Shown here: positions 3,582-62,008 of the stretch, in pieces | How the letters are laid out: each line of letters opens with the position of its first letter | Position numbering within the stretch: the stretch's first letter is position 1 | Source: Amoebophrya sp. A120 | Taxonomy: Eukaryota > Protista > Dinoflagellata | Direction of reading: 5' to 3' | Length of the DNA: 64,000 nt | NCBI GenBank assembly: GCA_905178155.1 | Contig: CAJINV010000005.1 | Location: 4,837,394 to 4,901,393, forward strand | Notes under the pieces: model-generated | Seen by the model: the letters and a program-made list of their open reading frames with translations, nothing else | Database searches by the model: none | Told to the model about the DNA's origin: nothing | Translations under genes and position numbers: made by a program

Positions 3582-6179
3582 TCAAAACTTCGGCACCGGC
3601 TGCAGCGCGTTCTCGCATCTCGTCAAAGACTGCAAGATGTCGTTTTTCATTTCCCTCACTTTTTCCCCCTGCACGTCCACCTCTCTCCGCGAAAAATCGA
3701 TCCTGACGACGGATTTATCGGTTTGAAAGTTCACTAACCGGTTTTTCTCGTCGATCTTGATCTCCTCGCCGTACGTCTGCCGTAAGTAACTCGTCCACAC
3801 AGACCACAACTTGTTTTCGACCGAGCCGGTATTTCCACTCGGGTAGATCATGTTCGAACTCGCGGATGAATCCATGATCTGCGCGGTCAACGCTTGCACG
3901 GCGATCGGCGATCTCGTGATTTCCAGCGCGCTATCAAATGCAAAAGTGTCTGGGTCTGGAAGAGTGGAAGACTTGTCATGCAGGTTTTCCATGACCCGTG
4001 AGGTCTGTAATGCATGGTCTAGCATCACAGATTTTGAGAGGGCTTCCTGATGCCTGTTCCGCATGAGAAATGCCCTCTCGCCGTGGCAAAAACTGGACTC
4101 CTCTTGCTGGTCATGCATTACAGATTTTTTTCGAATCCGAAGACAGCATCACAAGTTACAACCTTCCAGACCCAGACATTTTTGCATTTGATACGCGACC
4201 AGAACGATGCTGTCGGCCACCATATCCGCGACGGGACTCGCTTTCCAGGAGAGCTCCAAAATCTGGTTTTTCAGCTTCAATCTCACGCAGTTCTGCACCA
4301 GCATTTCGTCATCCTCGACCAAAGCGACGTCCTGATAAATCCCCTCGATCGCCTTGGCGAGAACCGCGAGATTGTTTCGGAACTGGAATTTCTGCGTTTG
4401 CTCGAAGGAACAAACCTCTAATTTCGTGAAAGTTGCTAATTCGTGCGGGGAAATCAAAGACCGGTCACCAAACGCGTCTTCGACCAGAATACCAGAAATG
4501 GTCTTGCTGTTGGAATCGGTTTTGTTCAAAGTAGTGTTGTCTGTTGTAGTGTTCCCTTTATGCCTCTTCGCGATGGGGGAAACAGTGCCGGACTCCGGTG
4601 ATAAAGCGAGTTCATTGGTGGTAGCAAGCTGATCCCCACCTCCGGTCTGCAGTGCGTTGACTGAAGAACTCGGGTTATTCACCGCCGCGTTATAAGCGTT
4701 AATCGCTAATTTTCCCGCGATTGTCACCCCCAAATCCGGTCGGAAGGTTATCGCGACAGACTGCGTGTTCGCGGGGGTGTAGACTTTCAAGGAGTCACCG
4801 TGGTCCGTTCTTAATTTGTTCCGCATCCTGGTCATGTTGGTCTCTTCCCCGTGGACGAGAATCACGTGGTTCGTGCGGATTTCCCGGATAAACGCGGACG
4901 TTTGCGTGTAATCCGAGTGAGCGGAAAAGGAGATGTTGTCAATCGTGCAACGCACGTGGACGATCCGACCATCCGGTAGGTTCAACTGGTCTGGCTGTTT
5001 CTCCAGGTCCTTCGCAATGGTTCCGTCAACCGAATACCCCGTCATGATCACGGCGTTTTCCCGTCCGCCGGCCCACAGTTCGAACAACTCACGAGAAAAA
5101 CCGTTCTGCAACATCCCCGGCGCGGCTAACACCACACACGCGGATCTGGTGTTCACGACTTCAATCGTTTTTTCCCGGTTTTCCGTCCCGATCGATTTGA
5201 CAAACCGCAGCTGCCAAGGATTTTGACCACCCGACTCCATCCCGCGCGCTAAATGCGTAAACGTCTCGAAAATCCGGCTGCACTTCAACGCCATAGGACT
5301 ATTGTAGTAAATCGGCACGTGCTGTAGTTCCGGCGACTTTTGCCAGTGCTCTTCCAACATGAGTAACAACTCCTGCGCCCGGCCCAGGGCAAAGGACGGT
5401 AGGAGAACTTTCCCACCGTTTTTCACCACGGAAACCACCTTCGCCAAAAACCGCGTCTCCCGGATTTTCCGGTCTTCGTGGGATTGCGTGCCATAGGTCG
5501 ACTCCACAATCAGAACGTGAATCCGCATCGGCGGGATTTCGGCCGGCATCAAATGGCGGTCCTCCTCCCGGGAATAATCCCCCGTGTACAACACCCGGAT
5601 TCCCGCGATCTCCACCAAAAACATCGCCGCACCCAGCACGTGGCCGGCGGAAAAACACGTGATCCGCATCCCATCAATGTCAATCACCTGCCGCAGGTCG
5701 ATTAGTTCGATCTTCTGGCAGGTCCGCTCGATGTCCTTGAAGGTGTAGATTAAGTCGTCGTTGTTGATTTTGTTGATCTTACTGTGGTCCTGCCACAGCA
5801 TCTTGCAAATCGATTTTGTCGGATGGGTCATCAAGACTCTGCCCCGGAAATCGGTCCGGTTGACAAAGTATGGCACGGCGCCGGAGTGGTCCATGTGAAA
5901 GTGGGTGATGAGGCACAAATCAATCCGCTTTTTCTCCTCCTGCAGCTTGTCAAAGTAGGGAAGTTGCGCCATACCGGATAAACCCGGGTGAACTCCGCAG
6001 TCGAACATGACAGATTTCCCTTTAAAGCTCATGACGACACAGGACCGGCCGACCTCCTGGCCGGAGCCAAGCGGCGTGATTTCGAGGGTGTCACCGGCGA
6101 TTTCGATGGTGCGCTTCCCGGTTTGGCCACCACCGGTGACCACCGTGGGTGGCGCGGCGTTCGCAGCGGAGGAAGCCAT
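3582..6179 (-). CDS. CPSF3: CPSF73/Ysh1 metallo-beta-lactamase/beta-CASP pre-mRNA 3' endonuclease, 2 exons
   Basis: PLGSGQEVGRSC, THFHMDH, AGHVLGAAMF, YTGDYSREEDRHL, FALGRAQELL and FSAHSD motifs. Removing element 3932-4193 plus 5 nt gives DSIVLVALEITRS and joins ORF 3582-4118. Confidence 0.95.
3932..4193. mobile_element. Introner family A (TIR tatcaaatgcaaaa.tgtctgggtctggaa)
   Basis: About 30-bp TIR; TSD cgcgc/cgcga; inside CPSF73. Confidence 0.9.
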
Positions 6180-7201
6180 CTTGTCTTGTGGTTTTTTGTC
6201 GTTTCTGGTTTATGCGAGTTGTAATTCGAGTTTAGTGTAAAAACTGCTTCAACATCAAGAGGGTCTCGTCGTCAATAAAGCAGAGCTGGATTTCTTGTTG
6301 AAATTCGGCGTGTCGTACTGAAGAATCTGAAAATTCGTTGGAGTCGTCCGTACCTTGCTATCTACTTTCTTTGAATCAATATCTGATGTGTTTTCTATTT
6401 GAAAAACGTGGCGAAATAAGAGCCCACGGACCGCTGAAGTAGAGAAAAAAAGCAGCTTTCAATGGAAGACTTCAGAAACAAAAAGTGATAGCTTCAGAAC
6501 AGAGAACTGTGCTGATCTGTAACGCTAATCGGCGACCGCGAAAAACACTTCGTACTTTGGATCCTATGCTGTGCCTGCACTAATAGAACTCGGGCTGGCC
6601 TCACTGACTAGAGATCTTTCATCGGGTAAAACTGTCAGCAAATAAATAGTAACTGCCATAATATGCTGCAATAGAACACCTTTCCAAAAAATTCTGTTGC
6701 CAGAGAGAAGCGTATGATAGTTCTGCTTCTGTCGTCTATCGACGCTGCTCGTGCCACTGCTTGGATTTTTACAGAGATTTAAGCTTCTCAACTTCTGATC
6801 CTGCGAGTGGAGTCTTTTTCAAATTCAGATGGTGTGGCAGGATATTGTTTCTCTTGTTGTCGAAAGCGCATAAAGGGTGGTGGATACGACAGAACTGCTC
6901 TCATGCGGATCCTATAGTTTGTTGTTCTGTGAAAACTTTCACAATAACATTTTTGATACAAAACAGACTCAAAGGGCGTCGAAGTGTATTAAGCGACAGT
7001 CCCAGAAGGTCGGCCTAATTGTGATAACAAGGCCCCATGAAAGGTACGTGGTCCGATTATGAGAAACGTTGTATCCAATAATGCAAAACAAGAAGTACAA
7101 TGCTCAGTGTGAAATTATATCATGGAAAATAGGTTTGAGAAGCTACGGGTTTGGTAGGGGAGAAAGACGAATGAGAACGAGAAATCATACACCTCCAGCC
7201 C

Positions 7202-9807: not shown

Positions 9808-12800
9808 CTACTTCTTCTTCTTTCCCCCAGAACCTCCCCCTTTCGCCGCTTGCTCCTCCCGCCGTTGCCTCAGTTTCGCCTCTAATTTCGATTCCGTCGC
9901 TTTCAATTCCTTTTTCACGTGCTGCGTCACTTCCGTTGGCTTCCGGATGGTACGTTTTTTCGCGGCCCCGGCGAACGTGTCATCAAATGCGTTCATTTTC
10001 GGGATCATTTTGAATTTTTGCCTTTTCGTCAAGGGGGCCGGACGTTTCGGCGCGAGAACTTTGCGATCGTCGTAGTCATCCACTGCCACGATGGCGGTAT
10101 GAGGGTCGTAGTTTTCAACATCGTCTTCATTATCGCTCTCACGAGCAGCGTCTTCGTCTTCCACCTCGTGGTCCGCCCCGCCTTCAAATTCATTATCATC
10201 CGGGTTTTCATTTTCTTCTGAATCTTCGTCCCCACTAGATTCCTGATGATCATCCTCTGACTCAGAGTCAGACTCAGAATTTTCCTGTTCCTCCATTCCG
10301 TCCTCAAGCGCCGCATTTTCTTCTTGTTCGTCCAGCTTCCTCTTCACAACACTCACCCCACTCGCGTGATGCGTGACCTGCGTGGTCAACTGCGTGAACA
10401 GATTCCTCTTTTCCCTCCCGTGCCTCGATACCCGGAAATCGCCAATTCCGATCTGGTCGTGAATACTTTTCCCGATTTGCAAGTCCACCGTCCCGGTTTC
10501 TGGATTTTTCGCGTTTGCGGCACGGTAGTTGAAATCTTTCACCCGCGACCACTTCTTGTAACCGTCGTGAGCTGCGACGACCTGGTCGTTGGCGGGATTC
10601 ATTTTGTCGTTTGCGAGGACAAGATGTTGGTTTTTGGAGGAACTGGAAATTGCGGAACTGGAAGAGACACGACCTTTGCTCTGCTGCTTGGATGAGGAGG
10701 CGGAAGTACCACCACGGAGATTATGATTGCTCGACTTTTTTTCCATCACGTCAAGATCTTCCTCCGCACTATCCTCTTCTTCTGGCGGGAGCAGGTACTC
10801 CTTTTTCGCTTTCTTCCGCGGCGGGGAGGAGATTTTTTTCTCTTCTTTTGCATCAAATTCCAGAACTTCTTCCTCCTCTTTTATTGTTTCTAGATTCGGA
10901 TTGAAACTCGAGCTTTTGCTGGTTTGCTTCTGCAGGGAGGTCGTCGTGCTGAACAATTTGTTTTTAGCACTTTGCTCCTGCAACTCGATTCCTTTAATAT
11001 CTTCGTCGCTGTTTATTTCTCCGTCGATCTTCTCGTTAAAAAACTCGTCCAACTCCTCGCCAAACTGGATATTTTCATTATTTTCATTCTGACTCTGTTG
11101 CTCCTGTTCCCGGGCAAACTTTGTTTCGAAATCCTCCTCATCCTCTTGTTCGGCGAGATGATGAAACCCAGCACTATTATTCCCAAGAAAGCCGCTGTTG
11201 TCTTCGAAGCTCGCGAGGTCGTTGTCATAAATCTCATGATTCTCATCAACCTCCATCTCGTTCTCCTCGTCACTGTAGTTAAAGTTATCGTTATCCGCGT
11301 CGTCCTCTTTAGCATTATCTTCTACTTCCGAAAAAGCAGTACCACCATCTTCCTCCCCAGCATTCGCCTCCTTTTCCATCTGCCTCAAGGCGGCGAAAAG
11401 CGCGTTTTTCTTTTTCTTCTGCCCGCGCGTCACTATCGTCCCGTCCTTCTTTCGCCACACGCCCTTCCCGATCTTCCCCCGACCTTTAATCGGGCCTTTT
11501 TTCCCTTTTCCCTTCCCGGTGAACAGGAAGAGATTTCGCGCTTCCACCTTATCGGAGTTGCAGCTTTCCTTCGACGATTGGCGGCTGGAATTCGTTGTGT
11601 TCCGCGATTTCCGTCTCTATCCTATGTAAAAACGTCATCATCCCGTAGCTGTAATGCAAATGCGCAATGACAGGAGCATTTGTAATGCACATCTCCATGG
11701 GAGGCATTTATTCCAGTTGTGTTTTGGATTTTGTAATGCTGTAAACAGGATGAGAAAGTGGCTTTCTCATGCGGCTCCCCTTGCTAACAAGCACCACCCT
11801 GCAAATGGAAACTTGTCATGCACAACTCCCTAAGCCTGGAGATTTGTCTAGCAGACTTCCCATCTTGACTATGGGGTGGGGACGTTTTTCCTCACAATAG
11901 CCTCCCGGCGACCTTCAACGGGTCAAAATCGTGAATCCGCTGCAGCATGTATTCTGAATAAAAACATCCCCACCCCAGAGTTGTGTCATGCAAATCTGCA
12001 TGCCAAAAAAGTTTCTCATGCGAAGCCACATGAGAAGCGTTTTTTAGTTGTGTTTTGGGATAATTTGTGATGCTACAAGTAGCATGATAAGCTAGATCTG
12101 TGATGCTGACAAACTAATCTAAACAGGATTACACCACGAGGGCAAGAAACTTGTCATGCGAAACAACCAAAGTTGCCTGATTTGTCTAGCAGATTTTCCA
12201 TGCTGACTCTGGTATATGGGGACGTTTTTACTCAGGATAGCATGTAAACTTTCTCAATCGCCTTCTCCCTCGCGTCCGCAAGCTCGGTAACCGTGAACCC
12301 GCCGTGCTTTAGGTAGGCGTATTTAATCGAAATTTTGTCACTGAGTTCTCCCTTCGTGGTGGTCGTCGTGTGGTTATCATTATTTTCCGCCGCGGCTAGA
12401 CACTCCTTCTCGTAGTTCAACCGCTCACTATCCAATTCATTCTTCACCGGGTACACTTTTTCATCCAGGAAACAAACCCCAGAATCGATAAACCGCGCCC
12501 ACCAGTAGCCGGGGGATATGCATTGCAAATATGTCTGGGTCTGGTCATGCTTGCCTGGCATGACTGAAGAGTTTGTCATGCGTGTCCAAGAAGAGGCCCT
12601 TTTGCTTGTCATGCAAAAGTAGAACGCAGTTTGTTATGCGGAAAGCGCAACACCAAGCAGCGCAAATATTTCTCATGCTTCGCTGTGCATTACAGACAAC
12701 TCACTACTCACAACTCAGCATTACAAGTTTCCAGACACAGACATAGTTGCACTTGATATGGGACAGCGGTAAGCAAGTGCCCGCAGCCGTGGTCCGCACG

Positions 12801-15800
12801 GAGGTCTTCTTCGGATCCGACCAAATCCACCGCACGCCGTGTCCCTTGCCGGTGAGTTGCGGCTGGTAGGCAAAGGAAGCAGCGATTTCTTCCTCTTTCG
12901 CTTGTAGCTGTTTCGCGAATTCCGCTTTTTTCTCCTTCAATGCGAACACGTTCGCAATGCGCTGGTCCGCTTTCGTTTCGACGTGTGCTTCATTATTTTC
13001 GCTATCATTTTCTTTTTCCTCATCATCGCTGTTTTGAAAATCTTCCTGGTCATCTTCGCTGGCGTTGTGGTCTTGCTGACCATCGTCACTCCCCCCTTCA
13101 CCCCCCTCGTTCTTATACCTCCCTTCCCTCCACCGTTTCGTCCCGCCGACGTTCTTGCTGACAAACAGCTTCCCGTGCTTCATTTCATTCTGATTCGCCG
13201 GTTTTCTCTTTCGTTTTTTCTTCAATTTCTCCTGTTCTTCCAGCTCCTTTTCCCCTTTTAACTTCAACTCCTCCGCCTTCTTAATCTTCGCTTTTTCTTT
13301 ATCGGTGCAGTACACGTAGCAGAGGTGTTTCTTCTCCTGTTGAATTCTCCACTCAATTGCCTTCTGCTTCGTCCGCTCTACCTCCTCCTCAATCTTGTCC
13401 TGATCGTACTCCCAGTTGGAAATCTGCGGCACAAACAATTTCCGCAGGGTCTTCTTTTTCGAAACGGTCAATTGCGCGATCCAGCAGGGAGGACGGAACT
13501 GCTGCTGTTTTGCTTTTCGTTTTGTACTATTTTCGTTTTCGTTCATATCATTTTTGTCATCATCATCCTCAACATCGGAGTTATGATTCTCATCCTGCTC
13601 ACCGATGAAGACCTTGTTGTTCGGCCGTCCGTCGGCGAAGTCATCGTCCGAAAAATTCAGGGGGTTGTCGTCCAACACTAACTTTCCGTACGCCGCATTG
13701 TATTTCGTGCCCATCAAGCTGCCCTTGCTGTTGGAGCGGGAATTGTTCTTCAACGCGGAGAATGGGTTGGGATCTTCACTAGTACAACCATTGTGTAGTA
13801 GTTCTTGTTCCTTTTCCTTGTCCTTCTCTTTCTTCGCATTGTTCCCTCCATCCCCAAACCTATCAAATGCAAAAGTGTCTGGGTCTGGAATGTTGCCGGG
13901 TTTGTCATGCATATTTTCCATGGCCCAGGATGTCTGTAATGCACGGCCTAGCATCACACATTTTTAGAGGGCTTCCCGATGCCTATCCCGCATGACAAAT
14001 GCCCTCCCCGCTTAGCACAAACTGGGCTTCTATTGCTGGTCATGCAATACAGATTTTTTTAGAGTTCAAAGTTAGCATCACAAGTTCCAACCTTCCAGAC
14101 CCAGACATTTTTACATTTGATAAAACCACCCTTTCCGCCACGTCACGCCGGGGTAGCCAGATTGTCGAAACGTATGACAGTGCACAGCTCCGCCTCCCCC
14201 TCCTTTGTCATGCAAAATACACAAAATCCAGGGTGTGCCTCTTGGCACTGTTTGCATGACAAGAAGCTACTCCGGAAGAAGCCCAAACGCTACTACACTC
14301 CTGCGCAAATTTGTCATGCGAAACCCGCATTCTAGCTGGCGCTTCTATTGCCGCTGATGCTACATGAATGAGGGCAAGGGGAGTTGTGCGCTCTCATAAA
14401 ACGCCGGCACCTTGTATTTTCGTCTCCACATCGGGTACTGCCCGGTCTTCTTGTGCATGATTGCGATCGCCTTGATGTGCTCCGCGCGGAGGGTGATCAG
14501 CGATTTTTTGTACTCCAACGCGTCGTCTAACGCACGGGATTTCGCGCGTTCAAATTTCTCCTCTGCTGGGTCGTCTGGGTGGATGTAGGGGAGGATGGGG
14601 TAGTCTTGAACAACTTTGAGGAGTTCGCTTCTGTTCTGCTTTATTTCTGGCGCGCTTTCTGTGTCTGCTTGGAAGAGGTTTTTCTTTTTAGTCTTCGTTC
14701 CCTCGGGGAAATAATCGTCTTCGTCATCGGACAGAACTTTCTCGTCCATGAAACTATCCGTCGTCTCCTTATCCTTGAACGGATTACTCACCGCCTGGTG
14801 GTATGCATTGCAAAAGTCTCGCACTCGTGCTAATTGCGGGTATGCATGGCAAATCTAGCTCTCCAAGATAAACCAGGATGACAAACTCCATGTGGCATGC
14901 CCAGAAAATTTGTAATGCAGTTTGTACTTGAGTACGCTACTTTTGCAGTGGATAGGTGGTGACACACTCGCCAGTAGCTGTAATTGATGTTTTTCGGCTC
15001 ATATTTGAACTGGACTCCCCGGAGGCCGGAGAAATCCGTCGCGTTTTCCCCCGTGAAGTCCTTGATTTTCCGGATGCGCTTCTTCAGCAGCGGCTTTACT
15101 TTCTTAGATGTTCGTGCGTGGTGCCTGTTTCTTTCAGATTTATGCTGCTCATCCCATTCGTCATCTTGCTCTTCGTCGCCGTTTTGGTCTTCGTCAGATG
15201 CAGCGAAATCATCGCCATCTTCATGAAACTTGCGGCGTCGTCGATGTTTTTCCTTCTTCTTTCGTACAAAATCATCATACTCTTCCTCCGAATCATCCTC
15301 ACTCGAAGCCGGACCTTCTGATTGTTCCGAAGAACTACTACTGTTACTGCTGCTGCTGCTACCCATCAATTCTTTCAGCTCCGGTAAATTCTCGCCTAAC
15401 TTGTTTAAGCCCAGAATATCCTCCTTCTTTTTCTTACCCTGTTTATTTTTCCCTCCTGCTTGTTTATTGCTTCTGTTGTTCTTTCCCAAAACCACATCTG
15501 ACGGCAACGCGTGCAGCACTTCCTGCCCGTACGCAGTGGGGTCGAAGTTGATTTTGCCGAGAAAATTCACCTTCTCCATGTCTTCTCTTATCAAAACATT
15601 CCCACCGCTCGCAGAGATGAGAGCTCCTGTGTGGTTTATTTCGTCGTTGTTCTCCTCTTCGACAAGCAAGTCACGACCGTCTTTCAGATCGACGAGTTGG
15701 AACTGTTTTTCGTAGTCTCTTTCCAACTTCTTCAATAGTTGCTTCTTCTCCTTCGTGGAATAGGACTTGACTAGTAACTCCTGTTGGAGTTGGAAACTCA

Positions 15801-34412: not shown

Positions 34413-34461
34413 CCCGCCGCGCAGCTCCTCCTGCTGGTTCCGCCATCACAAATTCGCCAGA

Positions 34462-47284: not shown

Positions 47285-50200
47285 TCACATCTCCCCATCT
47301 GACAGCAGCACCTCGCCCTCTATCATATGCAAATATGTCTAGGTCTGGAACTTGTCATGCAGATTTTACATGGCCCGCGACGTCTGTGATGTATTCCGTA
47401 GCATCATAGATTTTTAGAGGGCTTTCTGATGCCTACTCTGCATGACAAATGCCCTCCCCGCGTAGCACAAACTAGACTCCTCTTGCTGGTCATGCAATAC
47501 AGATTTTTTTAGAGTCCAAAGTTACCATCACAAGTTCCAACCTTCCAGACCCAGACATTTTTGCATTTGATACCCTCGCTCAAAGCGCAACTCTCCAAAA
47601 CCCGCCGCTCTTCCTGTTTGAGTTTCTGCATGACAGATTTGTCTTCATCCTCCTCGGCCACAGTGGAAAGTAGTACTTCCCCGAGGCTTTGGTTGTTCTG
47701 CCGGTTCGTCTTCAAGCCCCCTTCGTCGTCGTCCTCTGGTCGTGCGGTTACTGGCGGTTTCTGCGAAGGAGGATGAAAGCCAACTTTCGAAGCAGCCTCG
47801 CTTTCGACAGGACGAGCAGTGTCGTTTTTATTCTCGTTGTTCTGGTCAACATCTGCTGCATGGGAAGTCGAAGCGGAAACTGACATTTCGTCCTCCGCGT
47901 CAAAGGCCGCTCGGGCGGGGAAGAACGAGTTACTATTTAATATTCCGTATCTTGCTTTGTAGTGGTCAAAGACGAAACTTTGCGGATTCTGCTTTGCCTG
48001 CAGCTCCTTGTCACCGTACCTAGAGTTTTTTGTATAGGTGAAGTGAAGAATTTGCATTGCAGAAACACATTTTAAGTAGGTCATAATTGATGTTCCGTCT
48101 CGATTACAAAAAAAAAACCTTCAAGAATACATCAGAAAAGTACAGTAGCAACTCTGCAAATCGTCTCGTTTTCGCCTCGCTGTCCCGCTTGTCCCGCTGT
48201 TTCAGTTCCTGCTTGCTTTCCAAAAACTCGGTTTGTTTCTTCAGTTCTGAAGTTAGTGTTTCTTTTAACTCCTTTCTCAAATTCAGCACCACCGCGGTCA
48301 GTTCCTCCTTCATGGTGACCTTCAAATCCGTGGTTTTGTTCGAAAAATCCCGCTCCAATTTTTCGATCACAGAGTCAATTTTCAACTCGTAATTCTTCTG
48401 CTGCTCCAGCGTCTCATGGTACTGGGTCATGAGGACGTCTCGGTAAGGAGGAGGAGGGGGGTCTTCACTTTTGTCCTGTTGCGTCGCGAGTAGATGATCG
48501 CGTGTGGTGGAGGAAAAAAACGGAGGTGGCGGTAGAGTGACCTCTGCCTGCTGCTGCTTTTCTGAAACAGTGCGAGTTTCTGTACTAGTCCCGCCTGAGG
48601 CGACAGCTGCTGCTGGCGCATCAGAAATCTCTCCACCGCCCAGCTGCACAGGAGCCGGCGCAGCTCCCTCCACCTCCATGCTGGCAGAACCTGACTCTTG
48701 CGCCACAGAAACATTACCGGGCTTGTTGCTACTCTTGATGATGCTAGAGGGAAGATCACCAATGCTGTCGGTCCGGAACGTTTCTTCTGTCAGCACCTGT
48801 TGCAAAACTTCCCGGAACAAATCTCTTTGCTCCGCTGCTGAAAGAGACCGGGTCTGCCCTATTACAGTGAAAAATGCCCCCTCCCCATATCAAAACGTAA
48901 ATCTGCGATGCAGATTTGTGGCCACAAATCAGCTTTGTGATGCTAGAGGGCAAAAGATGCGGACTGTAGCGCTGTCTAGCGTGGGAAAGCCTTGCAGCTC
49001 CAGGATGACAGGAGGCAGCTGGAAGTGGGAAACCGCATGACAGATCATCTGCAATTTAGGCCGCAGCTTCGTCTCTTGGCCTTCTAGCAATACAAGTCGA
49101 TTTGTGTACTCAAATGCAGCATCACAAATTCGCGCATCTTCCGTTTCCGATATGGGGTGGGGGCTTTTTTCACTTTGATATGCCCGTCCTTTTCTTCCGG
49201 GGATTGTTGTGCAGTCTGCGCCTTGATACCCTGCTCCTGCTTCGCAACAGCATCGATTTCGTTCCAGATCTCCGCGGGCTGCGGCGCTTTTGTCATGATC
49301 CCTTTCCTTTTCGAATTCATCGGAGTTGTAGATTTATTCTCGTGGTTCAGACACTCTAACAGCTTCAACTCCGTCACGTAAACGCCGTGCGAGGTGTTCG
49401 AAATCACCGGCGGCGCGGAACCCGCTGCGGAGGTTGTCGTGGGGCGAGAATCTGTAGATCATGATTTATTTTTGAGCGATGTTTCTGCTTGTCGCAAATC
49501 ATATTTCTTCAGAAGGTGCAACTGGTTGTATACGAACACAAAAAAACATCATAGCAGATTATTCAAAAGTGCATTTCAATACCTTGATAGTAGCCACCTG
49601 TAGCACCATTCCTGTCCACGAACTTCTGCACGAACGGTAGCACCGGCGCATGCTGCTGTGGCTGCTGCTGCTGTGGCAGAGCAAAGTTCGGTGAAGCAAC
49701 CGCCCCGGCTTCTGCTGCAGAATCCATCCCGTAGAAATACCCGCCGTAAAAATCTGTCTGCACAGAATCCTGGGCACTATCCCGGCCCCGCGGGGGGGCC
49801 ACGTCCGGCGATCGCCGCGCATCATTATTCAAGTTTCGCGCCACGCCCGGCCCTCGTCCCGCATATTGTCGCGACGGGCTAGCAGAACTACTACTCGTAC
49901 CCACTGCGCGAGCTGCTCCTGCATCGCCTGCAAGCTGTGCTTGCTGCTGCCCCCGGAATAATGGTCCTCCTCTTCCGCCCGGACTGAAACTCCGGCTTTT
50001 CGTTTCCGAATACTGCGTCGCCGCGCGGAGCATCTCCCTGGTCTCCCCCACATCGGCGTCGGCGATGTTGTACTTTTTCTTCAATTTGGACGCAAAATTG
50101 TTGTATTCCTGTTCTTTATGCATTGCAAAAGTATCGTACTAGTATAGATTGCATCACAAATTTTTTCAAAAAGAAAAATAGAATTTGTAATGCTGATTCA

Positions 50201-53200
50201 CCTAAAAATGGATATTTGTCATGCATGATAGCAATTACTACGAGTACGATACTTTTGCACAGGATATTCTTTGAACTGCAGCAAAAGCTCTTCCGGGGTG
50301 GAATACTCGGTGGCGACACTGCTTTGCTGCATCTTTTCCTGCTGCGGTAAGAACCCAGAAGGACTGGCGGGTGTAAAAGAAGTTCCGCTCACCCTGCTGC
50401 TCCTTGCGCTGCCTTTCGCCGCGGCATGCTGTTGACCCCCTATGTGTGCAGCCGAGGTCGGCGGTGACCAAGCGGTTATCGACGCGACGCTCTTGCTATC
50501 CGATTTCGCAGACTGTGGCGGGCTGGAGAAGTAGTAGTAATTGTTGCGTGTTTTGTTCTGCTCTTCATTCAATTTCTCTGGCGGACTACTGGACGCTGCG
50601 CTGGCGAACCCGGCGATGTTATCAAAAGGAAAAACTCCCCCTCCCCATATTAAAACGGAAATCTGTGATGCAGATTTGTTGTCACAAATCAGCTTTGTCA
50701 TGCTACACGGGAAAAGATGCGGACTGTAGTGCTGGGTGGCGTGGGGAAGCCTTGCATCTTCAGCATGATAGGAGGCAGCTGAAAGTGGGAAACAGCATGA
50801 CAAATTGCCTGCAAACGAGGCCACGACTGCGGCTCTTGGCCTTCTAGCATGACAAATCGATTTGTGACCTCAAATACAGCATCACAAATTTCGTTTTCGA
50901 TATGGGGAGGGGGGATTTTTCCTTTCGATAGATGTCGTAATTCTCCTGGTCGTCGAGAAAGTTTTGGTTTTTGTTCAGAGGTATGAACTGCAAATATGTC
51001 TGGCTCTGGGAGATTCCGAGCCTTGTCATGCAGATTTTCCATGATCCATGTCGTCTGGAATTCAGCACCTAGCACGACAGATTCTCTGAGATCCCTACCA
51101 TGCCTATCCTGCATGAGAAACTCCCTGTCAACTTGATCGAAAGTGGACGTCTTTTGGCACTCATGCAACACAGAATCTTGCATGCTTCAGACTTAGCATG
51201 ACAAGTTGCAACCTTCCAGATCCAGACCCAGACATATTTGCAATCCATAAGAGACTGAAGCACCGTGGTCAAAGGTGACCGGGGCCGCTTGTTCGTGTTG
51301 TTATAGCCTTTGTTCAGCATTTCATGTCGTGGACTGCTGTTAAAACTGCTGTTAATTGCCGCGGTGCTCGCAGTATGCATTGCAAATGTGTCTGGGTCTG
51401 GAAGATTGCTATAGCAGACTTGTGACGGCGCAGGTCTTGCATGACCCATACCGTCTGGCAAACAGGACCTAGCATGACAGATTCTGTTTTTACATCTCTA
51501 TCATACCTCTCCTGCATGACAAACTGCCTCTCAACTTGGGCAAAAATACACACCGTTTGGCAATCATGCAACACAGATTCTTGCACCATTCTAGACTTAC
51601 CATGACAAGTTGCAGTGTTCAGGACCTTCTAGACATATTTGCACTTGATACGCATAGGCAGCTTGCTTCACTTTCCCAGAAGAAAACACTTCTTCCAGCT
51701 CCTGCATTCGTCTTCTCGCTTGTTCGATTTTCTTCACTTGCTCCTCTTTGGACAAAAGCTTGCTCGCGAAATCATTTTTAGCGGTCTTCTTGTTGCTTTT
51801 CCCAAATTTCAAATTGTTGTTACTCCTGCCCTTCTTGTTCGCATTCAGCACTTCCTGCAGCGCCTCCTGGGCTATTAAGAGGAAACATCCCCCCTCCCCA
51901 TATCGAAAAGGTATGCTTGCGAAAATTTGTGTTGCTGATTTGAGACCACTAATCACGTCTGTCTTGCAAGAAGGCAACTCCACAAGCTCCGCAGCATTGT
52001 GCAGGCGGTTTGTGATGCTCATGGGCCTACATCACGGACTTTTCTCATGCTAGACCCCTAGGCCAAAACCTCTCTACTTAGGCTTAGTATGGGCCTGCAT
52101 TCCTCTCCAGCAACACAAATCTGACTTGTGTACGCAAATCCTGCATCAGAAACTTCGTTTGGATATGGGGAGAGGGGATTTTTCCTTCTGATATGCGCTT
52201 TCTTCGCTTCGAGCCTCAGTTTTTCCAATTCCATTTCCCGTTTTTCGTTTTCAATCTTCTCCCGTTCCTCCACCAACTGCGCAAGCATGGTTTCCTCTTT
52301 CGCCTCTTCACAGATCAGCTCGCCCTATCAACTGCAAATATGTCTGGGTCATCTGGAAGATTTCTCATGCAAGTCTGGTATGACTCTGAGCTCTGTATTG
52401 CGTAGCCGCAAAGACGAGCTCCTCCTTTATGTCTTGCAAAAACGTAGTTTCTCATGCGGAGTACGCAACTCAGAACCACGGAAAAACTTGTCATGCTGTG
52501 CAACGCATTACAGTGTGCTCACTATTTTCCCCGTGCTTGCATCACAAGTTTCCAGACATCCACGGGAGATATTTGCATTTGATACGCCCTCGGTCGTGTT
52601 CAGCAGCAAGTCGTCATTGTCGTATTCGTCGGGCTCTTTTCTGTCAAAGCTGAAGGGTTATCCTGAGTAAAAACGTACCCACACCAGAGTCAGGATGGGG
52701 AATCTGCTAGACAAATCAGCCAGCTTTGGTTGTTTGGCATGACAAGTTTGTCCGCGTAGTGTAGTGCTGTTTGAGCTAGTTTAGCAGCATTACAGATCTA
52801 GTATCTCGTGCTGATTGGAGCATGACAAATTTCAAAACCACACTAGAAAATGCTTCTCATGGGGCTCCGCATGAGAAACATTTTAAGCATGCAGAGTTGC
52901 ATGACAACTATGGTGTGGGTACGTATTTACTCAGGATAAGGGCTTCGGCTTAGTCACCGGGGCGGGTTGGATGTTTGGGTTGTCGGTGTTGGGCGGGACA
53001 AGATTTGGATGCAGCTTGTCCCGTATTCTCGTCGCCATGTTGTTTCGGCGGGCAGTGGAGCTGTTGTTATTCGAGCTGGATTGTAGTTTGCCAGCAGTCT
53101 GTCTTGCGGGTGCTGCTGGGGCAATTTTTCCACCACCAATATTCGCCATGTCCTCCCTCCGGATGATTTCCGTTCGCGTTTCCTGCTTCAGATGCGCGGG

Positions 53201-56200
53201 CTTGGTTGTGGACATCACGACATTGGTACTGTTTGATGTAGTTCCGACACCACCAACATTACCGCCGCCGCGTGGAGTTGTACGTGAGTTCGAATTTGTA
53301 TTGGCACTACCAACTCCATGCGACGAGGACGATTTCAGCACCGTTTTGTTGTAATTCCGCTGCACGATTTCCGGATCATTTTGCACCGAATGTTGGAAGT
53401 TCGTCTCTGCGAAATTCGGTAAATCAACCCCGGTTGTAACAGCTCTACTCTGATGTCCGCCTCCTCGTTGTTCCCGTCTTGACGTCGAAGACGAGCTCCC
53501 GCCGATTTGTTCTTTCTGCGCGCCCAAAATTTTTTCCCTGTTCAATTCATACCGCATCCGCCGGTCTTCTACGCGTTCTAGGAGGTCGGGTGAGGTGGAG
53601 GTAGTCCCCGCGGCCGACGTGGAGGTTTTCGTGCGTTTTTTCATTGCACCACTAGCACCCTGCGTCGCTGTTCCAGAGCCGGAACCTACACCGCCGTTCT
53701 TATTCCCAGCGCTAGAAGCGGAGGACGATGATGTCCAGGTTAAACATTCCTTCGTGTATGAACTGCAAAAGTATCGTACTAGTTCTAGTATAAATTGCAT
53801 TACAAATTCACTTAGCATTACAAATCAAATTTGTAATGCGGATTTGCATAAATGCAATTAGTACGAGTACGATACTTTTGCACAGGATATCGTGTTTAAC
53901 TTCCCGATTTCCGATTTCAAATTCTGGTAAAACGTCAGCCTCTCCGGATTTGCGGAAGCGGTTGCGGTGGAAGCACTTTTGTCACTTGTCATGCCAACGC
54001 CAGCTGTGAAGTTCGTTGGGTCTTTATCGCATCTATCCTGTGCAAAAGTGGTACAGCACTCGTAGTATTGCAATACGAATTCGCTCAACACGACATAAGA
54101 AACTTGTCGTGCTGGTTTGCAAAATTGCGAATACTACGAGTACGATATTTTTGCACATGATAGCGTCCGCCGCTCGCCGTGCTTTCATACGACATCACGC
54201 TGGCTTTCGAGGATTTTGCGGAGTAAAAACTGAAAACATTCTGACCTGCAGCAGTTCCTGTTCCTTCGTCCCGCTGACCCCGCTCCTCGTCCTTCGTCTC
54301 CGCGTGGTCGGTGTCGAACAGATTCGTGGTGTTGAGATTGTTGTTGCGATAATTCTCATCTCCGTGACGATCCTGTTCCCTCGTCGTTGATTCCTTCGAA
54401 CTTGGAAAAAGTCTGGACGCGAGGGACTCGAATACCGTGTTCTCTAGGAACGGCTTTTTCGAGTCAGAAGCGGATGCTGTTGTTGTGTCTAGTCCACCTT
54501 TATTCATTCCTGCGTGTTGTGACGAATTCTGATTTTTCTCCCTTTGCTTGTCGCTCACCTCCTTCCGAAACTGGCTGCTCCCATCGGCCATCTGCTTCTG
54601 AACGATTTTTTGGGATTCTTTACTCAAACCGGATTTTGGTGCGGGGATCAGGGACGGCTTGTTCGCAGACGCAGCGCTGTGCCCTCTCCCATGCGATCCG
54701 TGCGAAGATCCCGGTCTTGACGAAGAGGACGCATATTTGCCTTGCTTTATTCCGGACGACGGTCGTGAGCTTGCGGATGCACCTGAATTCACTTGTTTTT
54801 CGCTGACACAGCATATGGAATAATTCGTGCTGCACTTACTATGCAGAAAAACCTCCCCAATGATAGATTGTGACTTCGACGCCAAAATTTAGATTTTCCC
54901 ACTTCCGAAACCCTAATGCAAAAATCCTTCCTACCTCGCCCATGTCTGCTGCCCTGCAGGTGCTCCCCACCGGTTCTGCCAGCACTACTCACAGCTGCGT
55001 CGAGGGTCGCCAAATTTTTCGGCTCGGAATTGGCTCCACCTCCATTCTATGAAATGCAAAAGCAGCGTACTAGTAGAAATCGCATTACAAATTTTCTCAC
55101 CAATAGAAATGGAATTTGTAATGCGGAATTACCTTGATAAAAAAATTTGTAATGCATGAATGCAATCACTACGAGTACGATACTTTTGCACAGCATACAT
55201 TCGCCCCCGCGATCTTCGACATGAGATGCCCGAGCTCCTCCTTCGAATTGGCGACTTGCTCGGCGAGTTCCCGTTTGGAATTTTCTAATTCCACCTTCAC
55301 CTCCTCGTGCACTATGGAAGCGTCAGGTTTGAAATCGTCAAAGTTGAAATAATTTGTAATGCATAAAATGCGTGACCTGAGGCACGTGTGTTGCAGAGCA
55401 GGCAAGTGAGGCCGATTGTAAGCCTGTTTGGGGTTACATCTCGAGCTGCTAAAGTAGCATAAGAAAATCGCTCTTCTTTGCCTAAACAGCATGACAAAGT
55501 GGATTTAGGGACCACCGAAATTTGTCTTGCGCCGCTTACAAATTGGGTCACAATCTTTCATCCATTTTATGCATGACAAATTATTTCAACTTTGGCGATT
55601 TCAAACCTGACGCTTCCATATGCACTTGGCTGTTATTAAACGCGTTCATGATCAGCTCCTGGCGGTGAAAGTGACCTTTCTGCGGATCGTTCGCACCAGG
55701 ACCCAAGCTTGTCAAATCAGTTTCTACTGCGCCATTATACCCCGCTGGTGCTGATGTCAACATCTGCGAATTACAACTATACGGGTTGTAGTTTGATGGA
55801 CCACCAGAGGATGCAGCTCCTGCTCGTCCGCTCGCAGTACTATTCTTATTCGAATTACTGATCACCGCCCCCGCGGTGTATTGCATGGCCTGGGCAACTT
55901 GCTGCAGCGTCTCCGTCAATCTCCGCTGTTGCTCGTTCTGCAAGCTGATTTGCCCCTCCAGCAACCGCGCTTGCCGCTCCAGGTAGAGTCTTTGCCACAT
56001 GCCTTCGAACACCTGAGGCTTATGGATCTGTCAGATTCGAAATCGACAAAGTTGAAATAATTTCTGATGCATAAATTGCAAGGCATGAAGTGCCTCTCTT
56101 GCAGGGATGGCAAGCGAAACCGACTGTAGGCCTGTTTGGGGTCTGCGATAGAGCTGCTAAAGTAGCATGACAAAAGACGCCCTCTGTCCCTCAACAGCAT

Positions 56201-56682
56201 GACAGACTCGATTTAGACAGTGCCGAAATTTGTCATGCGCCGCTTGGAAATTGGGTTTCCAACTGGTATCGATTTCATGCATTACAAGTTCTTTCAACTT
56301 TGTCGATTTCGATCCTGACACATCCATAAGGGTTTTCCTTTGCGTACTGCTGCGCGTCGGAGGCGAAGGAACCTGCATTTTTGTATGCTGAGTACATGTT
56401 GTTCTACTCCCAAAGAACGCATGCGAAATGAGGTTTGCAATGTGAGATCATATCGCATGACAAAAAGCGCCCAGTAAGAAGATCTTCCCATTTATCTTCT
56501 ATACCTTCCACATCTTCGTCGAAAAGGACCCGGGTCGTGTTATTTTTCAATTCGTCCTCGGGCGTTTTCGATACCATCACATCGTCGTCGTCCTTCGTGA
56601 CGATCAAGGGGTCGCCCGCCTCGATGATCGGCACCTGCTCCGTGTCGAGCTCAATCATGGATTCTTTACTGATCTTCAACAT
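47285..56682 (-). CDS. Large low-complexity coiled-coil hypothetical protein with 14 introners and several other introns; could be more than one gene
   Basis: Series of same-strand open segments separated by introners; ends LSEGEVLLSDGEM*. Not all junctions were resolved. Confidence 0.5.
47321..47572. mobile_element. Introner family A
   Basis: TSD ccctc/ccctc; right half near-identical to 13861-14122. Confidence 0.9.
48860..49180. mobile_element. Introner family F
   Basis: TSD tgccc/tgccc. Confidence 0.9.
50117..50266. mobile_element. Introner family B
   Basis: TSD ttctt/ttctt. Confidence 0.9.
50620..50930. mobile_element. Introner family F
   Basis: TSD gatgt/gatgt. Confidence 0.9.
50982..51249. 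mobile_element. Introner family A
   Basis: TSD agagg/agaga. Confidence 0.85.
51374..51650. mobile_element. Introner family A
   Basis: TSD cgcag/cgcat. Confidence 0.85.
51873..52193. mobile_element. Introner family F
   Basis: TSD tgggc/tgcgc. Confidence 0.85.
52326..52584. mobile_element. Introner family A
   Basis: TSD cgccc/cgccc. Confidence 0.9.
52659..52938. mobile_element. Introner family D
   Basis: TSD agggt/agggc. Confidence 0.9.
53757..53889. mobile_element. Introner family B, short
   Basis: TSD tcgtg/tcgtg. Confidence 0.9.
54034..54162. mobile_element. Introner family B, short
   Basis: TSD gcatc/gcgtc. Confidence 0.85.
55048..55197. mobile_element. Introner family B
   Basis: TSD cattc/cattc. 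Confidence 0.9.
55313..55620. mobile_element. Introner family I (TIR tatggaagcgtcaggtttgaaatcg.caaagttgaaata)
   Basis: About 40-bp near-perfect TIR; TSD tgcac/tgcac. Confidence 0.95.
56021..56328. mobile_element. Introner family I
   Basis: TSD aggct/agggt. Confidence 0.85.
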
Positions 56683-57233: not shown

Positions 57234-60200
57234 TCACCTTTTCGGCTGCTGTGGACTACTACTACTGCTATTTTTCGTGCTTCTATTGGAGGTTGCACTA
57301 GGTTTCTGGTACGGCCCCGCACTGGCAGCACTCGAACTACTTACTCCCGCAGCGGAGGTGCCCGCTGAGTTCCTGTTCTCAATGCACCCATCGAGCGATA
57401 TCGCTTCCAGGATCCTTACCCTTGTGTCCTGCTGGTACGCAACAGCCGCGGTGTTCGTACTGAAATCCGGGGCAACCATCGTGTCCTGCATGGTTACATC
57501 GGCCGGAGGCTCATCGTTCTCGTTCAGATTTATCTCGTCCACCCGATTTGCCTTCTCCGCAGATGACGTCGTCGGAGAGGACGAACTCACAACAGACCGC
57601 TTCCCGTCGTCGCTGCCGAGCGCGAAGGAAGACAAAGTGGACAGCTGCGCGATGGAATTCTTATCCTCGTCTTCCGCGACAAGCGAAACCGAATCCGCGT
57701 TGGAGTTCGTTCTCGGCGGCTGACTCAGAGTGGTGACGGAGGAGGAGGAACTCGGAGAAGTTCTCGCGTTATTTGTACTGCTAATACCTTTAGTACCTGG
57801 GGAAGAACGACTCGGGCTTCCTCTCGGGTTCGAAGAGGTGGAAGCTTGTGCAGCAGCAGCGGTTCCGGGGACTACCAGCAATTCCGCAACGGATTCCGCG
57901 CCGGGCGGGGGCTGGTACCGCGGGACGTGTTCGGAGGTGGAGCATGTTGAACCTTCCGGGTTATCTGATGTCAGTCTCAAATCACCACTACTGCTACCAT
58001 TGCTCTCGTCCCGGTCCGCCCCTCGGGTCACCTTGCAGTGAATAAAAACCACCCCGAACAGGCCGATCACGCACAAAACCGTGAAAAACAATTGGCTCAT
58101 GAAGTAATTGTTTCCCGTCGCGTCCACCAAGTGTCCGTACACGATATTTCCGAAAAACAGCCACAGGGACTGCTGCATGTAGCACCCCCCCACGTGCAAA
58201 ACTTCCAAATCCTTGTTTTTGCACACGTGGGGCACCAGGGTCCAGAGCGGCACGACGCAGCAGCCGAAACCAATGCCGAGAATCACGCAGCAGACCCACG
58301 GCGGAATTTGGAGAAGCGCGTTGTGGATGGAGGAGGTCGTGAGGGTTGAGTTTGTTTGGAAGGAACTCAACATTGTTGTCCCAAAAAAGCTGCTGCTGGT
58401 ACTGCCACTGCTGTTTTCAACATTATCCTCGAAGAAGTTGTTATTTGTCCAGGAGACGTCGGCGCTATTGTACTGAAACGCAGCAGAATCGTTGTACTCT
58501 GTGTCGTAGGCCTTCAAAGTGATCAGGCCCTGACCGATGAAGAGCAGCACGAACGCGAAGCAAGCAAACCGGATCAAGCGTTGAAAAGTGTGGAGCAGCG
58601 GGGCCAGGAAGAGGGAGACAACGGAGATTCCGGGAATCAGCGCGATCGCGGAACCGGCGACGCTGTTTGGTTTTTCGTTTGGTGTTTTTGCATGACAGAT
58701 TCTACTTTCGTGCTTGCTTTCTTGCATGACAAACTAGTTTTGGACAACTGACAACCAAAATAGTAGATTTTACCTCTCCGACACCCCCGCGACCCTTTGC
58801 AACGTCAGACAGCCGTTGTACTCGAAAACGAACACCACTGTGTATAGCAGCCCGATTAGCGCTTGGTGGATGAAACACAAGGCGGTCAAATCTTTCAGCC
58901 CCGGCTTGCCATTCCCGTCACTGCCATACTTCCCGCCGCCCCCGCTCGCGGCTAGCAGCGGCCGGATCTTTCGGGAAATCTCCGTCCCGCTATACAGGTA
59001 CGCGAAGGACAGGTAGCAGCACCCGGACACGCAGACGAAGACGAAGGAAAATTTCATATCCTGAGTAAAAATGTCCCCACACCAGAGTCAAACTGGGAAA
59101 TCCGCTAGACAAATCAACCAGCTTTGGTTGTTTCGCATGACAAATTTGTCCTCGTAGTGTAGTCCTGTTCTAGGTAGGTCAGCAGCATCACAGATCTAGC
59201 ATGTAATGCTGATTGTAGCATCATAACTTCCGAAACACGACTAGAAAATGCTTCACATGGGGCTCCGCATGAGAAACTTTTTTGGTATGCAGATTTGCAT
59301 GACAAATCTGGGGTGGGGGCATTTTTCCTCGCGATATTTCAGCGCCTTCAAAAACGCCGGGTTGTTGGTGTGTATGTCCGCATCTGGGTCGGCGAAGTAC
59401 TGCTTCAAAGGGTCGGCCAAGATGTAGCCCATGGTCCCGCCGATCCGGCACGCCGCCAACACTCCCGCCTGCGCGATCGCGGCGTACTTTTTGCTGAAGA
59501 GCAGAAACACGACCACCACCTGCACCACCCCGGTGGTGCAAATCCCCGCCCAGAACAGGACCCGGCCGAGGATGGAGAGGAAGTACACCTCATACTGGAT
59601 GGCGGCGATTAGTAGGAAGGACCCGAGACAGACCATGGACCCGAAGAGGAGACAGGATTTCGAAATGCCCCAGTTCCGCACGAGAAACCCCGCCGGGCCG
59701 GAGAGCACCGCGGAAAGCGAGCCCGTGGCGAGATATCAAAATGAAAAATCCCCCCTCCCCATATCAAAACGGAAATTTGTGATGCTGATTTTTTTTTTTT
59801 TTATGGCGGCAGTTTGTTTTGGCTACTAAACTTGCGATGAATCTCATTCCTAGTTTTCATTTTGACCTTAATGCTGCCGCGGTGCTCACGTCGACCGATA
59901 TGCAAACAGGTGCCGAGGCCTGTTTGCATGCGATCTAGTGAAGGTATATTGGGCGTTCCCGTCTGCCTTACCACGTCGCCCGGGCTTGCAGGGTTGGGAT
60001 TTTCCTGCCGGATGTTCAACGACATCTACGTGGCTAGTCATGATCCCTCTCCCTGTTGCGACCTGCTTTTTTGTTTGGTTGAAAAAATCCAAAAAATGCA
60101 AGGTTGAAAAAAAAACAAAGGCCGCGGTCTGTATTTGTTGAAAGATAGGAGGGAAACCCACCACGTAAGCAGGAGAAAATTTGGGCACGAGAGAAACAGA

Positions 60201-62008
60201 GCATGTACTAGGGCTGGGATTATGAAGCGGAGGCCATTAGACTACGAGGGCAAATATGTAATGGGCCAGACGATGAGAAAAGCGACAAACTTACTTAGGG
60301 GCTCACTAGCTAGCAAGGGCGCGAGGGGCTATCAATCGCAAGTAAAGCGGCCTAGGGAGAAAATGCTTAAGACTCGACAAAAGCCAAAGGAATCATCAAC
60401 GATGCGAAAAAAGCGAAAAAACAACAGAGAATCAGAGGCGCAGGCTAGAGGAAGAAAAAACGCTTAACGGTCTCTCAGGAACAAGAGGAAAATCGTAGCC
60501 AAAAAACCAGAAGAGATTCTTTCAGTTAAGGGGAAAAAAAAAAGAGGATAGGACGCGAGTTGTCATGCAAATTTGCTGCAATGACAAGAACATCTGCGAT
60601 GCGCATCCCCCGGATAGGCATTTGCAATCGTGTTTGGGGATTTGTGCTGCTGTAAACACGATCAGGACATGAATTTGTAATGCGGCTGGTGTTAATTTGT
60701 AGTTCTATCCGTGGATGAAACAACATACAAACCTGAAAGACATCACAACAATTTAGATGCTGATTGTGTGGTCACAAATCATCTTTGTCTTGTATATAGG
60801 ATCATAGGAGCCATTTGACGCATTCCAGAGCAAGTCTGTCATGCGCTTTCGACTACTGCAAGCCTGTTTGTCATGCGCAATTGCTAGCCTTCTGCATACC
60901 CAAACAAGCTGAGAAAATGCCGCCAAGCACTTTCTGCAAGACAGATCTGATTTGTGTACGCAAATCCAGCATGAGAAACTTCGTTTCGATATGGGGAGGG
61001 GGGATTTTTCCTCTCAATACGAGGATGAGGGAGTACTTGGTGTTGTTGATGTTCATCGCGAGCTGCAAATCCTCCTTGTATGGGGGTGTCAGGATTGAAA
61101 TCGACAAATTTGAAATGATTTGTCATGCATAAAATCGATACCAGTTGGAAGCACAATTTCGAAGCGGTGCATGAGAAATTTCGGCACCGTCTAAATCCAG
61201 TTTGTCATGCTGTTTAGGCACAGAAGGCGTCTTTTGTCATGCTACTTTAGCAGCTCTATCGCAGACCCCAAACAGGCTTACGATCCGCCTCACTTGCCAT
61301 CCCGGCAAGACAGGCACTTCATGCCTTGCATTTTATTCATCGCAAACTCTTTCAACTTTGACGATTTCAAACCTGACACATCCATACCTTGTACGCACCA
61401 AATAAGCTGTCGAAGAAATACGGGCCGGGAATGAAGCAACAAACCAGCACGTGGACGATCAGCAAGTGGCAGGTTCTCCTCGGATCCACCAGGTACTTCA
61501 TCCACCGGTCTAAACAGGTCCTACCGGGTCGCGACGAGGAGCTCGACGGGCTGGTGCTGGAGGAGTTCTGCTCTTCATGATTGCCCCGCGACCCCTGCTG
61601 GTCGTAGTTGTTGTCCGCTCCTCCTGCTCCTCTTGTTCCGATATTAAGGAGGTTGCTGGAAGAGGAATTCCTTGAACTGGCCGGCGAATTGTCTCTACTA
61701 CTCGTTGCTGCGAAAGTATCGAACGCGTGGCCCGCATTTTCGTTCGTGCCGTCGAGGGCGGGCAAGGCGATGGAGAGCACGGGTTCGGACCCCGCGGTCC
61801 GGATCCACTCTTGCTTGGTCTTTTGCACGTAGAGTTCCGGATTATTACTTACTCGGCTGGGCGGTCGCTGCTGCTGTTGTTGTGAGGCAGCATGGTCAGA
61901 TGGATTCAGCAGCGGGCGGTCGCGCCGATTGTTCCCGGCGGACGGCGAGGACGGCCTGCGCGGGCCCTGCTGTCTGCGCTGGTTCTGGCTCGGTTGCGAA
62001 GAACGCAT
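57234..62008 (-). CDS. MFS transporter, MFSD1-like
   Basis: Multiple hydrophobic helices; HVLVCCFIPGPYFFDS, SGPAGFLVRNWG, ILGRVLFWAG, IVYGHLVDATG. Joins YK|EDL, LIL|ATG and ALK|FSF are in frame. Confidence 0.8.
59057..59336. mobile_element. Introner family D
   Basis: TSD tttca/tttca. Confidence 0.9.
59734..61019. mobile_element. Introner family F expanded by an internal insertion of about 965 bp
   Basis: Family F TIRs 1286 bp apart; TSD cgaga/cgagg. Confidence 0.85.
59791..60755 (-). mobile_element. Retroposed insertion (poly-A tail plus 10-bp TSD) nested in an introner
   Basis: gatgctgatt duplicated at 59781-59790 and 60756-60765; T-run at 59789-59802. Confidence 0.75.
61079..61386. mobile_element. 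Introner family I, inverted relative to the 55313 and 56021 copies
   Basis: TSD ccttg/ccttg. Confidence 0.9.

Follow-up and report, generated by a model that had tools for sequence, protein, structure and literature searches.

Introners of Amoebophrya sp. A120 are removed from mRNA in either orientation, at an apparently fixed junction and with candidate direction-dependent bases in the repeat

The window analysed here is a stretch of 64,000 nt from Amoebophrya sp. A120 (contig CAJINV010000005.1 of assembly GCA_905178155.1, positions 4,837,394-4,901,393). Its host genes lie on the minus strand and are interrupted by 52 inverted-repeat elements, each starting with TAT and ending with ATA, with at most one change. 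The elements are 129-331 nt long, plus one of 1286 nt, and each has a terminal inverted repeat (TIR) of ~25-30 nt and a 5-bp target-site duplication (TSD). These are the published introners of A120 (Farhat et al. 2021, PMC7789003). The traits of those introners are present here, i.e. an inverted repeat that begins TAT and has a run of A after ~7 variable bases, a direct repeat of 3-5 nt at the borders, repeated families and removal from mRNA, and open reading frames (ORFs) of the window equal proteins named A120 at source. The published account likewise gives non-canonical ends and a hairpin model. The elements and the hairpin idea are thus not new; what is new is the register of the junction, the polar bases and the lack of preference for G·U in the stem. 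In the sections of the published account that were covered the borders are called variable or unknown, 'orientation' refers to gene order only, and there is no orientation count, register or polar invariant. More widely, no orientation counts, fixed register or branch point for Amoebophrya were found in the open-access text searched (Farhat et al. without its figures; Gozashti 2022 and 2025 in part).

A reading of this DNA made from the sequence alone had proposed that sibling elements lie inverted relative to one another within genes that are all on the minus strand, and this is borne out. A TAT…ATA element with a 5-bp TSD begins at each of the 13 coordinates that it cited (CAT…ATA in the case of 27303). 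Orientation was assigned by aligning the internal sequences after trimming of the TIRs. Elements 3932, 13861 and 47321 of family A are opposed to 19842, 27303 and 44633 (the global identity of 13861 and 44633 is 0.58 on the same strand and 0.82 when reversed). In family D 11950 is opposed to 39365, 52659 and 59057 (0.57-0.60 against 0.81-0.83), and in family I 55313 and 56021 are opposed to 61079 (0.60-0.61 against 0.79-0.87). The clustering of orientations has no conflicting edge in any cluster, and family A divides 11:7 in the window. The restored ORF places 40 of the 52 elements in minus-strand genes and none in plus-strand genes, with 12 uncalled, and spliced contigs that skip CT..AC introns also fit minus-strand hosts. 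When the window is pooled with loci of another assembly no family departs from equal numbers of sense and antisense copies, the splits being 64:48, 19:14, 13:10, 8:9, 11:6, 9:6 and 5:5.

Excision restores the reading frame, as had been claimed. When the element is removed with 5 nt, the open flank on the minus strand has a median of 666 nt, whereas excising +4, +6 or +0 nt gives 108-121 nt, and the plus strand 114 nt. Splicing in silico generates minus-strand frames of 2031, 1251 and 1050 aa, across 7, 11 and 9 junctions respectively. Two named A120 proteins agree with such frames, P0001 over 1201/1201 aa (11 junctions) and P0003 over aa 1-413 (3 junctions). None of these 14 protein-supported junctions overlaps the 18 shown by contigs.

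The evidence for splicing comes from assembled contigs of runs X1-X4, which are tagged as RNA by guess only and derive from two samples of one study. At least 18 of the 52 elements are skipped exactly (i.e. the element and one TSD copy) in these RNA-like contigs, with both sides either shown or fixed by arithmetic on the records. A contig of 5859 nt from X1 and, over most of the same span, one of 4001 nt from X4 skip 11 elements as well as three CT..AC introns, and show zero other letters. All 11 element joints listed for the 46812..54933 contig remove exactly the element and 5 nt. Further contigs skip 19842, 12517 and 14802 directly, and 11618, 11950, 13861 and 14173 by record coordinates. 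Five more elements (42146, 44633, 55048, 59057 and 59734) each have one expected end of a contig piece, and for 55313 and 56021 of family I the evidence of removal is ORF restoration alone. The raw-read runs X8 and X9 gave 7 reads each over the window, every one partial.

Both orientations are removed from the RNA in three families. Family A is spliced as 47321, 50982, 51374 and 13861 in one direction and as 52326, 19842 and 12517 in the other, family D as 52659 against 11618 and 11950, and the 150-nt family as 50117 and 53757 against 14802. The guessed status of X1-X4 would allow the elements to be removed at the level of DNA, like internal eliminated sequences, or the contigs to come from an element-free strain. 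We consider this extremely improbable. The same contigs skip GT-AG introns, again with no other letters, and the DNA-like run X5 reads through the ends of elements and lacks the 19836>20098 joint; note that contigs drop rare variants. With X5 included 13 of 15 joint rows were repeat artefacts, so the coordinates of contig pieces were used instead.

The position of the junction can be derived from elements with imperfect TSDs, because these reveal which copy is retained in the mRNA. The upstream copy is retained at position 1 for 50982, 51374 and 52659, at position 3 for 51873 and 54034, and at position 4 for 11618 and (from one side) 42146, placing the 5′ cut within -1..0. The downstream copy is retained at position 5 for 12517 (in X1, X2 and X4), placing the cut within -5..-1. 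From four imperfect TSDs we infer that the sole register common to all is exon|n5-UAU…AUA-n1n2n3n4|exon, so that the cut is staggered about the element, 1 nt before it and 4 nt after. An element of another locus with the TSD GAAGG/GAAAA, chosen from a list for this purpose, is in agreement; only register -1 yields the E of the homolog P0002, the earlier registers that were tried giving K and the later one G. The TSD mismatches of 24551 and 25746 are synonymous and that of 59734 alters nothing in P0003, and therefore those proteins fix no register.

An intact TSD is not required, contrary to the suggestion that the flanking repeat takes part in recognition, since the copies are mismatched in 7 of the 18 elements whose splicing is shown by RNA. 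Mismatches are fewer at position 5 of the TSD (7, compared with 22, 17, 15 and 24 at positions 1-4; p=0.008 against position 1). The spare copy of position 5 becomes intron +1, yet no base is preferred there.

The remaining base counts were made on 289 gene-oriented copies, comprising the 52 elements of the window and 237 from loci of another assembly, with a uniform register assumed for all. The strand of most copies is inferred, and a stricter strand call gives 205. Left out of the set were 77 of 154 loci (<1.5 kb), 19 of 258 elements lacking a strand call and 2 dropped by eye. Any base can occupy intron +1 (G 101, A 70, T 60, C 58), and the final dinucleotide is unrestricted, AG occurring in 23/289. 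The ends are therefore not GT/GC-AG, as had been noted from the sequence; 9/289 are canonical GT-AG. Among the 52 elements 61079 is the only GT-AG intron at the derived register, because its TSD is CAAGG.

It could be argued that the junction differs from one intron to another within the TSD, as a mixture of cryptic spliceosomal sites. Farhat et al. describe variable or unknown borders, families in Polarella splice in several frames (Roy et al., bioRxiv 10.1101/2020.10.14.339549), most junctions here can be slid along the duplication, and 13861 and 39365 can be read as GT..AG at register -4. Against this, every constrained case agrees with -1, GT/GC-AG ends reach a maximum of 2/52 at any register, and the 11 listed joints all have the same form. 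We give this explanation little weight.

The use of both orientations had been taken as a sign that excision is guided by structure, on the grounds that spliceosomal signals are strand-polar. This does not follow. The first and the last 25 bases of an inverted repeat are identical in both directions, so orientation independence cannot prove that a hairpin is recognized; it locates the signals in the repeat but does not show that pairing is needed. Moreover, introners that are spliceosomal and spliced in either orientation have been reported in Polarella glacialis and Aureococcus (Roy et al.).

Four bases close to the ends distinguish the two directions. U+2 is constant in 289/289 copies while its partner in the stem, A-5, is present in 283 (6 changes), and A-7 is constant in 289/289 while its partner U+4 is present in 282 (7 changes). 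The two invariant bases are thus not partners of each other, and together with the staggered cut this argues against a symmetric recognition of the ends. The crossed asymmetry has p=0.0006 by Fisher's test (all 289 copies, post hoc and on the same data) and p=0.003 in the subset of 205. When 567 ends located by the inner repeat, with no requirement for TAT, were counted again, the changes were 1 against 10 and 7 against 0, after subtraction of 3 shifted or doubtful matches; these ends are drawn from the same data. Deviant copies occur in both orientations of the element, and mirrored inner positions have no comparable strand bias. The third pair is changed to C·A five times and never to the wobble-compatible U·G, which pairing would predict to be tolerated. 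We have relied on this 5′/3′ asymmetry and set aside a comparison of terminal with inner conservation, which is confounded because the termini must also remain intact for transposition.

The tolerated donors of the elements, N-UAC and N-UAG, are the same as the local canonical donors GUAC and GUAG; four confirmed canonical introns have GUAC, GUAU, GUAG and GUAU, i.e. GTA in all four. Canonical introns predicted by a crude gene model prefer A+3 and U+4 (34/70 each). The counts from this model are weak, since it found two of the four confirmed introns exactly and had one further wrong by comparison with P0003. A-7 is present in 2/4 of the canonical introns confirmed by RNA. Separately, the 3′ ends of the confirmed introns (48020-48143, 49452-49582, 54783-54934 and 20168-20373, minus strand) are A-rich rather than pyrimidine-rich.

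The mechanism that we favour, with a confidence that is about evenly balanced, is splicing by a relaxed spliceosome for which N-UAU is the donor and A-7 the likely branch point, probably aided by the stem. The short non-coding elements were likely inserted as DNA transposons with duplication of 5 bp of target. A relaxed U2-type spliceosome would then read the direction-dependent bases of the repeat; the conservation suggests that N-UAU serves as the donor (i.e. GUAU with +1 freed) and that the first A of AUA, at -7, is the branch adenosine, the acceptor being set by distance rather than by AG. Because the repeat is inverted, donor and branch signals are present in either orientation. The ends are probably brought together with help from the inner stem (positions 8-26), which might replace U1. 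In a more specific form, to which we assign somewhat less than an even chance, a U1-less spliceosome with no need of G+1 or a 3′ AG would read N-UAU and the branch A and measure 7 nt to the acceptor. According to Farhat et al. U2, U4, U5 and U6 are retained in A120 together with most of the spliceosomal proteins, and the layout of inverted and direct repeats recurs in 15% of the canonical introns. Among features of U2-type introns the elements have U+2 and a donor like those of the host's canonical introns, and lack a fixed G+1, a terminal AG or an isosteric pair of first and last bases.

A hairpin is predicted for most of these introns, with a fold z of -5.6 (two introns), no difference between sense and antisense (p=0.83) and the inner stem present in 46/51. 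The proposal that it is closed by UAU/AUA was, by contrast, overstated. The probability of the terminal pair exceeds 0.5 in just 35/51 introns and is 0.01-0.24 in four introns shown by RNA to be spliced, and TIR positions 4-7 pair in 114-202 of the 289 copies. In family A these positions pair no more often than in permuted arms (51, 55, 105 and 31 compared with 59, 59, 105 and 37). We note that at positions 4-7 the variants at one end of a copy are independent of those at the other, as if ends were reshuffled between copies or unconstrained there. The stem shows no preference for G·U over A·C (296 against 289; confidence interval 0.48-0.57 for positions 8-26). Mismatches in the stem tend to rise with decay of the TSD (13% against 17%, p=0.058). 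A few mismatches could go unseen in a long stem, so these pairing tests leave room for a role of the stem.

Bulge-helix-bulge is the motif of tRNA endonuclease substrates, and CNG|CNG loops are that of IRE1. If a purely symmetric structure were sufficient, a hairpin closed by UAU/AUA with its flanking repeat would be recognized as are the substrates of these enzymes, and the stable hairpins, equal on both strands, and the lack of orientation bias in any family would be expected. Yet the terminal changes are asymmetric in a crossed fashion, the junction is staggered, spliced elements include those with imperfect TSDs and those in which the terminal pair is poorly predicted, and stem mismatches tend upward as the TSD decays. 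A bulge-helix-bulge-like helix of 4 bp is found in 10/289 copies (the mean of shuffled sequences is 5.7) and the IRE1-like motif in 0/289. We consider a symmetric structure as the sole signal, or cleavage of the tRNA endonuclease or IRE1 type, improbable.

Several observations weigh against the relaxed spliceosome. The polarity was found post hoc and depends on 13 changes, mostly in loci of the other assembly with inferred strand; the window alone provides only 1 and 1 change, and four of the six changes at A-5 are to the wobble-compatible G. The lower limit of the register is set by one RNA-shown element and one case of homology. An excess of A-7 is absent from the crudely predicted canonical introns (21/70, from a noisy model), and the context of A-7 carries no sign of selection for a match to U2 (U at -9 in 132/289, compared with 129 in the mirror control). 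The pairs of first and last bases normally needed by the spliceosome (G-G, A-C and C-A) are not enriched, at 69 against 64 expected. With a long stem, donor and branch would be expected to be inaccessible to U6 and U2. Lastly, in a check for compensatory changes the arms covary above permuted arms in three of four families; in family A there are 70 double changes against 54.5 in permuted arms (p=0.018), and the excess of pairing lies mostly at position 14. Covariation of the arms is compatible either with pairing or with descent from subfamily masters.

Some of these points are those expected of a non-spliceosomal machine like that of Euglena, which would recognize the paired stem and the UAU/AUA bases, cut 1 nt before and 4 nt after them and release a circular intron. 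We regard this as the main rival, though rather unlikely. The nonconventional introns of Euglena (Nomura et al. 2025, PMC12501133) share the form of miniature inverted-repeat transposable elements, free termini, a short palindromic motif, fixed spacers and a terminal stem, and pairing has been shown to be essential there. In the elements +1 and the last dinucleotide are likewise free, the first and last bases have no pairing bias, an inner stem is predicted with arms that covary, and U1 was not detected in A120 (Farhat et al.). The analogy drawn from the sequence therefore holds for the layout. It fails for the code, as N3CDG…CHGN5-6|R is found in 0/289 copies, with spacers here of 1 and 4 nt and a purine at the exon start in 171/289. 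The invariant bases, moreover, are not partners and resemble the donor U and branch A, there is no bias to G·U in the stem, and the register equals that of a spliceosomal introner, class 12 of Polarella.

The relaxed spliceosome can be compared with two known systems. Class 12 of Polarella has a 5-nt TSD that provides the first base of the donor, with the acceptor at TSD position 4, exactly as here, and TIR introns occur in either orientation in both cases. The introners of Polarella and Aureococcus need G+1 and a final AG, supplied by the target (NNAGG for class 12), whereas the elements do not have a GT/GC/GA donor with an AG acceptor (G+1 in 101/289 and AG in 23/289). The U2 spliceosome of Fritillaria borealis is reported to remove non-GT/AG introns that derive from TIRs and TSDs (Soo et al. 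2026, PMC13326754; review PMC11282704). There the preferred ends are AG-AC and AG-AT, U1 is kept and U2AF is duplicated; in A120 neither +1 nor the final dinucleotide is restricted, and no U1 was detected.

Table 1. Features of the window, numbered from its first nucleotide
Feature	Coordinates	Strand	Remarks
Host ORF	9811..17550	-	2031 aa once 7 elements removed
Host ORF	24346..30661	-	1251 aa once 11 elements removed; contains P0001 exactly
Host transcript span	46812..54933	-	11 elements and 3 CT..AC introns absent from one contig of 5859 nt
Host gene for P0003 (924 aa)	57234..62008	-	protein match
Family A element, orientation 1	3932..4193	.	host CPSF73-like gene on minus strand; one mismatch between TSD copies
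Family D element	11618..11899	.	mRNA retains upstream TSD copy at position 4; runs X1, X4, record arithmetic
Family D element, opposed to 39365/52659/59057	11950..12239	.	spliced
Family A element, orientation 2	12517..12758	.	intron 12513-12759; 12512 joined to 12760 in X1, X2, X4
Family A element, orientation 1	13861..14122	.	spliced; sliding 4 nt also permits GT..AG reading
150-nt family element, opposed to 50117/53757	14802..14954	.	spliced
Family A element, orientation 2	19842..20097	.	19836>20098 joined in three RNA-like runs; DNA-like X5 has depth 0
Family A element, orientation 2	27303..27565	.	A-5 replaced by G in the intron; excised in annotated protein P0001
Family A element, orientation 2	28361..28623	.	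A+3 replaced by U in the intron; excised in P0001
Family D element	39365..39643	.	within restored ORF 38609-43274
Family A element, orientation 2	42146..42388	.	intron U+4 changed to C; contig piece begins 42389 (one side), upstream TSD positions 3-4 retained
Family A element, orientation 2	44633..44895	.	contig piece ends 44627, as a joint would (one side)
Family A element, orientation 1	47321..47572	.	joint 47315>47573
Family A element, orientation 2	52326..52584	.	spliced in same contig as orientation-1 47321, 50982, 51374
Family D element	52659..52938	.	joint 52652>52938
Family I element	55313..55620	.	frame restored in silico only
Family I element	56021..56328	.	frame restored in silico only
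Family D element	59057..59336	.	removed in P0003
1286-nt element	59734..61019	.	normal ends, nested or unrelated interior; removed in P0003
Family I element, opposed to 55313/56021	61079..61386	.	TSD CAAGG; removed in P0003

Pfam names could be given to 3 of 20 pieces of host ORF. The gene at 3585-6209 (minus strand) encodes a CPSF73-like 3′-processing endonuclease, and the element at 3932 sits inside its CPSF73-100_C domain, with profile positions 2-112 upstream of the element and 142-209 downstream (the downstream match has E 0.003, below the cut-off). The ORF at 34465-35526 (minus strand) contains a microbial-type PARG catalytic domain (PF10021, E 1.5e-14). Beyond its stop there is a lone element end (34201-34460) with neither partner nor TSD, which may have decayed as a result of lying outside coding sequence. 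The spliced translation of locus L012 (minus strand) includes a stretch that may resemble the pore region of IP3/ryanodine receptor channels. The interior of the 1286-nt element includes ~760 nt that match none of the loci and begin with a T14 run, and a fragment of family D at 60557-60688. The other assembly contains elements up to 97-98% identical to those at 50620-50930 and 28675-28953, although its homologous protein has only 68-78% identity with that of A120; this could reflect recent shared activity, transfer or a paralog. Coding-like tandem repeats with a unit of 15 nt occupy 36933-37704, and 62000-64000 is GC-rich (65%) and free of elements. A search of the window against Rfam gave no match, and the TIR motif was absent from the viral contigs that were searched.

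Farhat et al. (2021, PMC7789003) posed as an open question how >60% non-canonical introns are removed in the absence of a detectable U1. With a fixed register and two bases that are candidates for function, the question of splicing in Amoebophrya becomes directly testable. If the spliceosomal reading is true, G+1 and AG would be dispensable genome-wide, and the tolerance of ~30,000 insertions in coding sequence would be explained. If the spliceosome acts without U1, any insertion, at any site and either way round, would be a perfect intron immediately. If instead the machine is like that of Euglena, this would be a second origin of such splicing.

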